From the IMG/VR virus record IMGVR_UViG_2529292919_000018: a stretch of DNA of 44,108 nt; one strand, given 5' to 3'. This stretch comes from a virus (Duplodnaviria > Heunggongvirae > Uroviricota > Caudoviricetes). The position numbers were made by a program, and so were the translations under genes. The notes beneath the pieces are model-generated. The model was not told the DNA's origin. It saw only the letters and a program-made list of their open reading frames with translations, and made no database searches. The number at the start of each line of letters is the position of its first letter. Within the stretch, counting starts at the first letter, position 1. Shown here piece by piece: positions 9,956-10,993 of this stretch.

Positions 9956-10099
9956 TTAATTGGCAGAATTCGTACATGCACAACAACTAGTTATAGTTGA
10001 CCTATTTCGCTCTTGAGAGACAACCATACTCAAATCTTCCACATTGCAGGAGATTTGAGTATGAATACGTCACCGAGGAACAAAGACAGTATCATAGGC

Positions 10100-10581
10100 C
10101 CAAAAAGACCACTTCAGATATCTCATATCTGGGGGCTCCAAATCCGGCTTGAACTGGAAGGTAAAACGCGTGATTTAGCTCGGTTTCAAGCAGAGCTACG
10201 GTGCTGCAACTGAAAAACTGGCAGTCCTATCCAATTTGAGATAACCAAAGGGACAAGAGAAGCTGTTTCTGCATTGATAAAGCTTGGCAATTTACGCAGT
10301 AAAGACTACTTGTTCCGATCTCGGGTCGGTACTAACCAACACATATCAATCCTGCAATATAACCGAATCTTTCATAGGGGGGAGAAAAGCTTGGTCTCGA
10401 AGATTCGCTTTACAGCACACATTCCATGAGAAGAACAAAACCTTGCCTTGTCTGCAAGAAAACTAAGAATCTCCGGGTGATCCAACTTCCGTTGGGCCAT
10501 AAGAAAACGGAAAGCACAGTTCGTTATCTGGGTATAGAAGTTGATGATGCATTAGAGATCTCTGAATCGATCGAAGTCTAA
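10100..10581 (+). pseudogene. Degenerate tyrosine recombinase (integrase) 3' fragment with in-frame stop and frameshift
   Basis: Frames concatenate to ...KTGSPIQFEITKGTREAVSALIKLGNLRSKDYLFRSRVGTNQH.../...LYSTHSMRRTKPCLVCKKTKNLRVIQLPLGHKKTESTVRYLGIEV-stop: HxxR box, LRVIQ, LGH and catalytic Y in canonical spacing, broken by TGA near 10211 and frame change near 10375-10400. Confidence 0.6.
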
Positions 10582-10993
10582 AGCTGTCAGGGCTGCAGCA
10601 GCAGCCCTGTGCCAAGAGCGTACCAATATATGTCTCAAAAAATTGGGCACAGGTCAATATCAATACCAACAACTCTGATTGTGCTCATGTGATTTACTCC
10701 TGTAGAAAACGCAGACAGTAAAAATATTTCACTGGCTGCTTCAGACAGGGCGTCCATCATATCATTACATAACAATAGCGGGGCACGATATCTAGACATG
10801 CAGCAACGATGGACATAGAATGAGTACAATCAAAAGCATGTTTAACTACTTTAATTTAAAAATCTTAGAATCTTAGGTGTAGAGTTCAATACTTAGTTAC
10901 ATACCCTTTTGAAAGCATCACAAATCATAACTATGAGCCTGTTAAAGGCATAGGTATTCTTAATTAAGAGCATTTTAATGAGAGAAAAATAAA

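Follow-up and report, generated by a model that had tools for sequence, protein, structure and literature searches.

The stretch of DNA analyzed here (the window: 44,108 nucleotides (nt) of IMG/VR virus record IMGVR_UViG_2529292919_000018) is an Escherichia coli lambdoid prophage, identical to a region of the enteropathogenic E. coli (EPEC) strain E2348/69, and contains an island with the broken gene of a tyrosine recombinase. We conclude that this pseudogene probably derives from the recombinase, now inactivated, of a cassette-exchange system seated at the hotspot that the lambdoid prophage has between its replication genes and hokD. The evidence comes from the intact relatives of the gene, from two short sites (site I and site II) between which the gene is nested, and from the coincidence of these sites with the borders of variable cargo in other genomes. 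Taken alone the pseudogene is ordinary and already annotated; it is its context that is informative.

The initial annotation had read three frames together as the catalytic part of a tyrosine recombinase, interrupted by a TGA and a frameshift, and this was borne out. The joined three-frame translation (172 amino acids (aa)) matches PF00589 (Phage_integrase) with 32.9 bits against a gathering cut-off of 27.1, and the identical stretch of E2348/69 carries the RefSeq label 'tyrosine-type recombinase/integrase; frameshifted; internal stop'. The lesions were called by aligning the pseudogene to intact copies, from which it differs by ~9% substitutions. An 82-nt deletion between TAGCTCTGTT direct repeats, with its junction near 10175/10176, removed codons 39–66 and with them the first catalytic arginine, which is R51 of the intact copies in an alignment of the family. 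Further downstream are an in-frame TGA at 10211–10213, which is the product of a substitution, one extra A within the A run at 10213–10217 (a +1 frameshift), and a −1 frameshift in the G run near 10378–10383. The motifs KTG...HxxR...H...Y are readable as the initial annotation had described, with the codons for K79, H148, R151 (HxxR), H174 and Y183 still present; the complete catalytic set R-K-HxxR-H/W-Y is not found in one open reading frame (ORF) of the window copy. Because the first arginine is deleted and a TGA and two frameshifts are present, the window copy is a pseudogene of a PF00589 superfamily member, and the same pseudogene is found at 99.6–100% identity in all carriers of the island (17–19 E. 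coli genomes). In E. coli GDAR2-2 (locus L087, 8054–8574) the identical 82-nt deletion between the TAGCTCTGTT repeats occurs in a copy that is otherwise ~99.5% identical to an intact gene and lies in a different island; the repeats thus seem to be a place where slippage recurs and inactivates the recombinase gene.

Intact relatives are annotated as 'site-specific integrase' of 200 aa (e.g. WP_001305361) and range from 194 to 203 aa; all contain PF00589, the match spans nearly the whole protein, and there is no arm-binding domain. Copies at 88–91% DNA identity are present in ~800 of 5426 complete E. coli genomes and on ~700 plasmids, and the family comprises more than 8000 protein clusters with 60–97% identity across Enterobacterales, Alteromonadales, Pseudomonas and Burkholderiales (gamma- and beta-proteobacteria). 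The cut-offs of the NCBIfam Xer models (XerC, XerD, XerA and XerS; 220–335 bits) were not reached, the scores being 58.2, 49.6, 32.1 and 30 bits, and the match of the family to XerD in the PDB had only E = 0.002. As DNA homology among the copies covers only window positions 10007–10623 (617 nt), with unrelated DNA on either side, the recombinase module and its two neighbors are separate units. Truncated fragments of the recombinase gene are frequent at hotspot borders, as at 4001–4074 of L003 and L004 (P2-like Yersinia and E. coli phages) and at many IMG/VR loci among L253–L289; examples are the first 19 nt with the upstream hairpin described below, and residues 162–200, 25–103 and 1–21.

The initial annotation had also proposed that the island, or part of it, arrived as an independent element and has since lost mobility. 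This stands in part: the ~4.3 kb from about 8762 to 13061 are an insertion relative to related prophages, found in only 17–19 of the 5426 complete E. coli genomes, and their mobility apparatus is decayed. What does not stand is the notion of one integrative element with a phage-type integrase and att repeats. Under that explanation the pseudogene would once have encoded the integrase with which a self-contained island inserted itself by recombination of attP with attB, and att repeats would bound the island, as might be expected from a recombinase remnant inside an inserted island of low guanine-cytosine (GC) content (0.30–0.44 compared with about 0.5–0.58). However, no direct repeats bound the island, none being found that join the regions around 8758 and 13061; the 194–203-aa family lacks the arm-binding domain that, together with a core-binding domain and a length of ~330–450 aa, characterizes phage-type integrases; the homology to other copies ends after 617 nt, with unrelated DNA on both sides; and in related prophages the same hotspot has site II and site I at its borders in place of att duplications. 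We consider a classical integrative element extremely improbable.

The recombinase module includes two hairpins. At its 5' end a perfect 13-nt inverted repeat, missed by the initial annotation, pairs the Shine-Dalgarno (SD) sequence GGAG and the start codon (folding energy −20.1 kcal/mol, z = −6.2), and an SD-pairing hairpin of differing sequence is found in relatives, the SD being paired in 65 of 75 distinct 5' regions. The perfect hairpin with a 9-bp stem that the initial annotation had described just past the stop codon is present (−22.9 kcal/mol, z = −3.6 against shuffles), and GC-rich hairpins of differing sequences likewise follow the stop codon in relatives (75 distinct 3' regions, median −22.1 kcal/mol, median z −2.8). 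Because hairpins recur with different sequences in relatives of all clades, the 3' hairpin is part of the recombinase gene module; it had been taken as a sign of an integrative element, and proved to be a conserved component of this module instead of a leftover att site. Its identity as an intrinsic terminator was ruled out, as it has no T tail and was not called as a terminator. A scan of one intact locus against Rfam matched no RNA family. The second inverted repeat of the initial annotation exists; however, it is imperfect, with one indel, and its conservation in relatives is limited to the left arm, which is the core of site II.

The two sites share their arms and differ in their cores, with the consensus GTCCGCT-NNT-CGCTCA-N-AGCGGAC for site I and GTCCGCT-NNG-TGCCAG-N-AGCGGAC for site II. 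At their left end intact recombinase copies read GTCCGC-NNT-TCGCTCA-TAAGGGAC (site I), and past the 3' hairpin there is a conserved motif, TGCCA-NN-AGCGGAC, at which homology stops. Free-standing copies in Enterobacterales align to a unit of ~70 nt that consists of site I, a ~20-nt spacer and site II. In all clades, whether Enterobacterales, Pseudomonas or Burkholderiales, a site I and a site II enclose the recombinase gene, which thus replaces this spacer, and the site consensus co-varies with the clade. The 1.3 Mb surrounding 80 recombinase genes contain 86 copies of the 14-mer [GT]GCCA-NN-AGC[AG]G-N-C, compared with 4.2 in shuffles; of the 60 copies that are not immediate neighbors of a recombinase gene, 43 are on the strand of the gene and 17 on the opposite one. 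Genomes with the unit (881 of the 5426 E. coli genomes) have one to three copies, confined to accessory DNA and never annotated, so that the unit is not a repeat of the repetitive extragenic palindromic (REP) type; the same copy numbers rule out an identity with Box C. At Pseudomonas-type loci (L035 at ~10640 and 14720, L086 at 9740, L023 at 7045, and L027), an element with the ends CAGNCTGTGTAAAAACG... is found exactly in the core of site II, and looks like an insertion sequence (IS) that targets site II much as IS1111-type elements target attC. In addition, an inverted copy of the site II core, TGGCACAG(A/G)G, is present 25–30 nt upstream of the border site II in P2-like (e.g. L104) and lambdoid (e.g. 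L106) backbones, reading TGGCACAGAG in the former and TGGCACAGGG in the latter, and could be a putative accessory binding site.

Cargo that varies from genome to genome lies between these sites at the P2 G-FI hotspot, in CP4-type islands, on plasmids and at the lambdoid hotspot between the replication genes and hokD. Of 13 homology-block ends at enterobacterial loci in which the recombinase has no part, 10 are no more than 15 nt away from a site core, where chance would give 0.2. The exact 24-bp pattern was found in at least 120 IMG/VR contigs, 32 of them P2-like and 51 lambdoid, the latter with site II at the same position of the hotspot. P2-like phages have site II ~65 nt past gpG and site I ~178 nt ahead of gpFI, and between these borders 26 contigs (25 P2-like and L003) contain 17 different cargos that diverge right at the cores. 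Altogether 63 viral contigs with a II...I pair hold 38 different cargos, many with ORFs that match known defense proteins such as PD-T7-1, PD-T7-5, ThsB, DarTG, AbiH, PD-T4-2, NsnA and RT-protease, among others. One cassette of 1,024 bp is 99.4–99.8% identical in 10 viral contigs, from two lambdoid lineages and a P2-like contig, 94% identical in two further viral contigs (one of them, L109, P2-like) and 92% identical in an Erwinia contig, and is also found adjoining the recombinase on an IncFIB plasmid; every alignment of this cassette begins 1–3 nt before the TGCCAA core and stops at site I. In CP4-type islands of E. coli genomes, the breakpoints beside a GTPase gene fall on the 24-bp site, and both flanks are adjacent in 205 genomes. 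Moreover, two homology blocks in E. coli GDAR2-2 abut at a single site II, whose left half is that of one site II of FDAARGOS_536 (L002) and whose right half is that of another, the two copies being 3.2 kb apart in L002 with two cassettes between them. By its sequence, this junction is the product that would be expected of recombination between two copies of site II.

The window repeats this arrangement in decayed form, in the order decayed site II, DUF5677 cargo, site I remnant, dead recombinase gene, site II, PtuAB cargo and deleted site I (Table 1). Intact layouts of the type II-cargo-I-recombinase-II-cargo-I are present in related prophages. In one of them (L223) the order is ydaT (91% identical to that of the window), site II, cargo, an open 200-aa recombinase gene, cargo, site I and hokD; the intact version for which the initial annotation had suggested looking is thus found there and in L226–L229. 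Att-like repeats had been suspected near 8690–8720 and in 13000–13240. The former region led to the decayed left-border site, which lies within 8712–8761; by alignment of the flank (window 8640–8761) it is the ortholog of a canonical site II present in 15 related lambdoid contigs, and backbone homology stops at 8749–8760. Read with the preceding hexamer (GTGGGG in the window, GTGGTT in the canonical sequence), it agrees with the canonical border in 20 of 30 bases, 16 of 24 within the site. No site was found in the latter region, the right site having been lost by a deletion that truncated a small backbone ORF: at this junction (13062–13110) the ORF, which ends ...AIVLMDRLSD in related prophages, lacks its 5' part, and in those prophages site I lies 216–233 nt ahead of the point equivalent to 13062. 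Both border sites, II on the left and I on the right, are present in related prophages, and in the window the pseudogene is still surrounded by a site I remnant, the SD hairpin, the 3' hairpin and site II. The mobile parts of the window are thus all broken, with the recombinase dead, the left-border site II decayed and the right-border site I deleted, and for this reason DUF5677 and Septu are fixed in place.

Part of these data could also be explained by transposition. In that case the site I-recombinase-site II module of ~720 bp would be an autonomous IS, the solo 70-nt units would be its miniatures, comparable to miniature inverted-repeat transposable elements (MITEs), and cargo boundaries would coincide with them only through insertion between genes. 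Consistent with this, the module is bounded by imperfect inverted repeats and moves as a block of 617–700 nt with 88–91% identity across genera, the solo sites look like the module minus its interior, and a hairpin that sequesters the ribosome-binding site (RBS) is typical of ISs, e.g. IS10 and IS50. However, the borders of P2-like and lambdoid hotspots are half sites around cargo, with II on the left and I on the right, the opposite of the order that insertion of a miniature would give; no target-site duplications were seen; and the junction in L087, compared with L002, is cleanly accounted for by recombination of site II with site II. Transposition is in our opinion quite unlikely.

A DNA invertase or phase-variation switch, inverting segments between inverted sites to switch neighboring genes in the way of FimB/FimE or the R64 shufflon, has to be considered in view of several similarities. 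FimB and FimE are likewise of about 200 aa, have a minimal N-terminal region and act on short inverted repeats; sites I and II are inverted repeats of each other; and the minority of 14-mer copies on the opposite strand (17 of 60) would suit inversion. Shufflon sites are asymmetric, with a 7-bp core, GTGCCAA, and one conserved arm, and the core of site II, GTGCCA(A/G), equals this sfx core; seven copies of GTGCCAATCCGGT were verified in R64. On the other hand, the FimB and FimE models NF007371 and NF007370 gave 25.5 and 18.2 bits with cut-offs of 222 and 221, Rci of R64 (384 aa) has no detectable similarity to the family by BLASTP (E = 0.48), and the arm sequence differs from that of the shufflon. 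Whereas FimB/FimE invert a single promoter segment and the shufflon inverts segments of one gene, our comparisons show replacement, insertion and deletion of whole unrelated cargos, not inversion of one segment. An invertase therefore seems very improbable to us.

The nearest analogs of the cassette system are integrons, the pdif modules of Acinetobacter plasmids and the R64 shufflon. Integrons also combine a tyrosine recombinase with arrays of cassettes, which often encode defense genes, separated by imperfectly palindromic sites of ~60–70 nt, and they too have site clusters without a recombinase gene. Nevertheless, IntI is of ~320 aa compared with 200 aa here, and its model (TIGR02249) gave 15.9 bits with a cut-off of 265; the site consensus is unrelated to that of attC (R''-L''...L'-R') and lacks GTTRRRY, and its boxes are conserved by sequence and not by structure only; furthermore, cargo genes occur here in either orientation, and the recombinase gene lies inside a site, not beside attI. 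The pdif modules of Acinetobacter plasmids resemble the present system in that accessory-gene modules lie between short core-type sites in alternating orientation and recur on different replicons, the breakpoints falling at the sites, but they use the host XerC/XerD and 28-bp dif-like sites, in place of non-dif sites and a dedicated small recombinase within the array. Engineered cassette exchange with heterospecific lox or FRT sites, in which shared arms with different spacers flank the cassette, has the very layout of the P2-like and lambdoid hotspots; because the two sites share arms but differ in spacers, a double crossover swaps the cargo and leaves the backbone unmoved. It is, however, an engineering method and not a natural process, and the non-cross-reactivity of cores I and II in the system described here is putative.

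In the intact layout cargo segments, mostly of anti-phage genes, extend from a site II up to the following site I, and segments from site I to site II hold the recombinase gene, the 20-nt spacer or the remainder of the replicon. On this basis we propose a mechanism of cassette exchange in which the 200-aa recombinase would bind the GTCCGCT/AGCGGAC arms and exchange strands within the cores, its substrate being either duplex or folded single-stranded DNA. Recombination of site II with site II would insert or delete cassettes, and since the two cores differ, a II x II event paired with a I x I event would swap cargo between replicons. The recombinase would also act in trans on site pairs without a gene of their own, an assumption that has to be made because most site pairs lack one, and the SD hairpin probably limits translation from read-through transcripts.

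Several observations weigh against the pseudogene being part of such a system. The link of the recombinase to the sites is one that we infer from their co-location and from the nesting of the gene. Sites far outnumber recombinase genes, most site-bearing P2-like and lambdoid contigs being without one (3 of 120 have it). In covariation counts on 28 solo sites, two local hairpins left no signal, and pairing of the whole site left a weak one that is not decisive. The 200-aa protein almost lacks the N-terminal core-binding domain, and AlphaFold2, given the intact protein in an alignment of 20 sequences, produced a poor model (mean predicted local distance difference test (pLDDT) of 52.7). In the window, the left-border site taken alone is a weak nhmmer match (E = 0.14) that is not significant by itself, and the right border offers no site evidence; cargo genes of the window were found in no other site-flanked context among 89 loci and by exact-protein look-up, which returned the same prophage only. 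Some of these points would suit passive palindromes, such as REP-like sequences, terminators or RNA-stabilizing hairpins, around which cargo turned over by homologous or microhomology recombination and the recombinase were itself cargo with another role, e.g. in dimer resolution or inversion. An excess of sites over recombinase genes would then be expected; the arms tolerate C/T changes that preserve G-T pairing, identical 24-bp sites could support rare RecA-dependent or microhomology events, and homologous recombination has been proposed for hotspot exchange (Rousset et al. 2022). This explanation is nonetheless unlikely, as it does not account for a recombinase nested between sites I and II in every clade with a co-varying consensus, for breakpoints inside cores of ~6 nt, or for sites that are low-copy and limited to accessory DNA (1–3 per genome in the 881 E. 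coli genomes). As for the system as a whole, we put forward only tentatively that the 200-aa recombinase in its own heterospecific site pair is the enzyme, so far unassigned, driving the rapid swapping of anti-phage systems in the P2 G-FI and lambdoid replication-hokD hotspots, in CP4/P4-type islands and on plasmids across Proteobacteria. If it is, recombinase-mediated cassette exchange would exist in nature as well, and a fossil of it would be preserved in the window.

In 2004 Nilsson, Karlsson and Haggard-Ljungquist reportedly described, in Mol Biol Evol, inverted repeats on both sides of the Z/fun locus in P2-like coliphages. They are at the same locus as, and presumably identical to, the site II past gpG and the site I before gpFI; the nested 200-aa recombinase, the existence of two cores, the lambdoid, CP4-island and plasmid contexts and the spread beyond Enterobacterales are added here. 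According to a review, the inverted repeats on either side of P2 fun make site-specific exchange with bacteria possible (PMC8987985, which cites Nilsson 2004). Recent hotspot studies cite Nilsson 2004, propose other or unspecified recombination routes and name no recombinase: Rousset et al. 2022 speculated on recombination near cos, and a 2026 study in Nucleic Acids Research (NAR) of thousands of P2 and P4 elements concluded that functional systems are swapped through recombination, whose kind it did not specify, and recorded numerous tiny pseudogene remnants between genes. The truncated recombinase fragments mentioned above resemble these small remnants in the defense loci of P2/P4 elements. 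Our literature search, in which the site sequences were included and which did not cover the text of Nilsson 2004 and Odegrip et al. 2006, found no paper describing the recombinase or its sites, and none in the literature searched that links the P2 fun inverted repeats to a 200-aa recombinase. That the recombinase-site system as a whole is undescribed is thus a possibility to be held with reserve; the pseudogene is probably a fossil of an only partly described cassette-exchange system.

The recombinase family and its sites constitute a concrete, testable candidate mechanism for the fast exchange of defense systems among phages, satellites, plasmids and islands, with defined 24-bp sites, a defined 200-aa enzyme and predicted products. 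The sites also provide a simple sequence handle for delimiting hotspot cargo and could help to find new defense genes, e.g. DUF5677 and many unannotated cargos, and a minimal recombinase with two heterospecific sites could serve as a genome-engineering tool. For the window alone the result is modest, the context accounting for the presence of DUF5677 and Septu in this prophage.

Table 1. Positions of the features of the island and its borders in the window.
Feature	Position	Strand	Description
Inverted copy of site II core	8712..8721	+	TGGCACAGGG; conserved backbone flank left of border site
Decayed left-border site II	8738..8761	+	GTTTGCTTTG TGTAAG AAACGGAT; canonical GTCCGCTTTG TGCCAA GAGCGGAC
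Cargo segment 1	8762..10006	+	IS3-family end remnant and DUF5677 gene; occurs only in same prophage family
IS3-family end remnant (left end)	8797-8842		46 nt; matches 2843 plasmid records
DUF5677 gene	9113-9955		Pfam DUF5677, E = 3e-9
Site I remnant, left end of recombinase module	10007..10021	+	core TCGCTCT, right arm GAGAGAC; left arm not conserved
Perfect 13-nt inverted repeat over SD and start	10025..10063	+	arms 10025-10037 / 10051-10063, CATACTCAAATCT-N13-AGATTTGAGTATG; pairs GGAG and ATG
Tyrosine recombinase pseudogene	10061..10581	+	ATG 10061-10063, TAA 10579-10581; PF00589 match, RefSeq label, alignment to intact copies
3' hairpin of recombinase module	10588..10609	+	CAGGGCTGC-AGCA-GCAGCCCTG; 9-bp stem, 4-nt loop
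Site II, right end of module	10601..10623	+	GCAGCCCTG TGCCAA G AGCGtAC; one right-arm mismatch; homology to copies ends 10623
Second inverted repeat	10605-10614 / 10643-10653		CCTGTGCCAA / TTGGGCACAGG; imperfect, one indel
Right arm of second inverted repeat	10643..10653	+	TTGGGCACAGG; in cargo-specific DNA, conserved in no relatives compared
Cargo segment 2, Septu defense system	10624..13061	+	ptuA 10994-12367, ptuB 12354-12989
Backbone resumes within small conserved ORF	13062..13294	+	right-border site I and about 220 nt of backbone gone
IS481-family insertion sequence	13295-14388		6-bp target duplication 13289-13294 / 14389-14394

The second cargo segment of the window encodes Septu, with the PtuA ATPase (PADLOC, 549 bits, E = 2e-165) and the PtuB HNH nuclease (278 bits, E = 1e-83) adjacent on the same strand; the two genes overlap at 12354–12367 by the RefSeq start of ptuB, or at 12345–12367 by the longest ORF. 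The DUF5677 protein of the first segment had no match in PADLOC or NCBIfam and is a candidate for an uncharacterized defense gene, as cargo in a defense hotspot. A candidate site I at 8833–8852 was rejected, since it overlaps the end of the IS3-family terminal remnant; the same IS3-family end sequence is present in L088 and L089, there followed by the start of an IS OrfA (MKKRFSDEQII).

An imperfect inverted repeat of 35 nt (77%; 9026–9060 / 10764–10798) brackets DUF5677 and the pseudogene, and its right arm overlaps a promoter-like site (10793–10821) upstream of ptuA; by its statistics (E = 0.42 for the core 13-mer) this repeat exceeds chance only slightly, and no counterpart was found elsewhere. 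The region adjacent to the hotspot is eroded too: fragments of the backbone genes for DUF1627 and DUF977 lie at 8399–8757, between gene P and the hotspot, the DUF1627 part being frameshifted and partial according to RefSeq. Finally, the IS481-family element is lacking in several otherwise identical prophages (L092, L094, L095, L097, L099 and L100), and its insertion is therefore recent.

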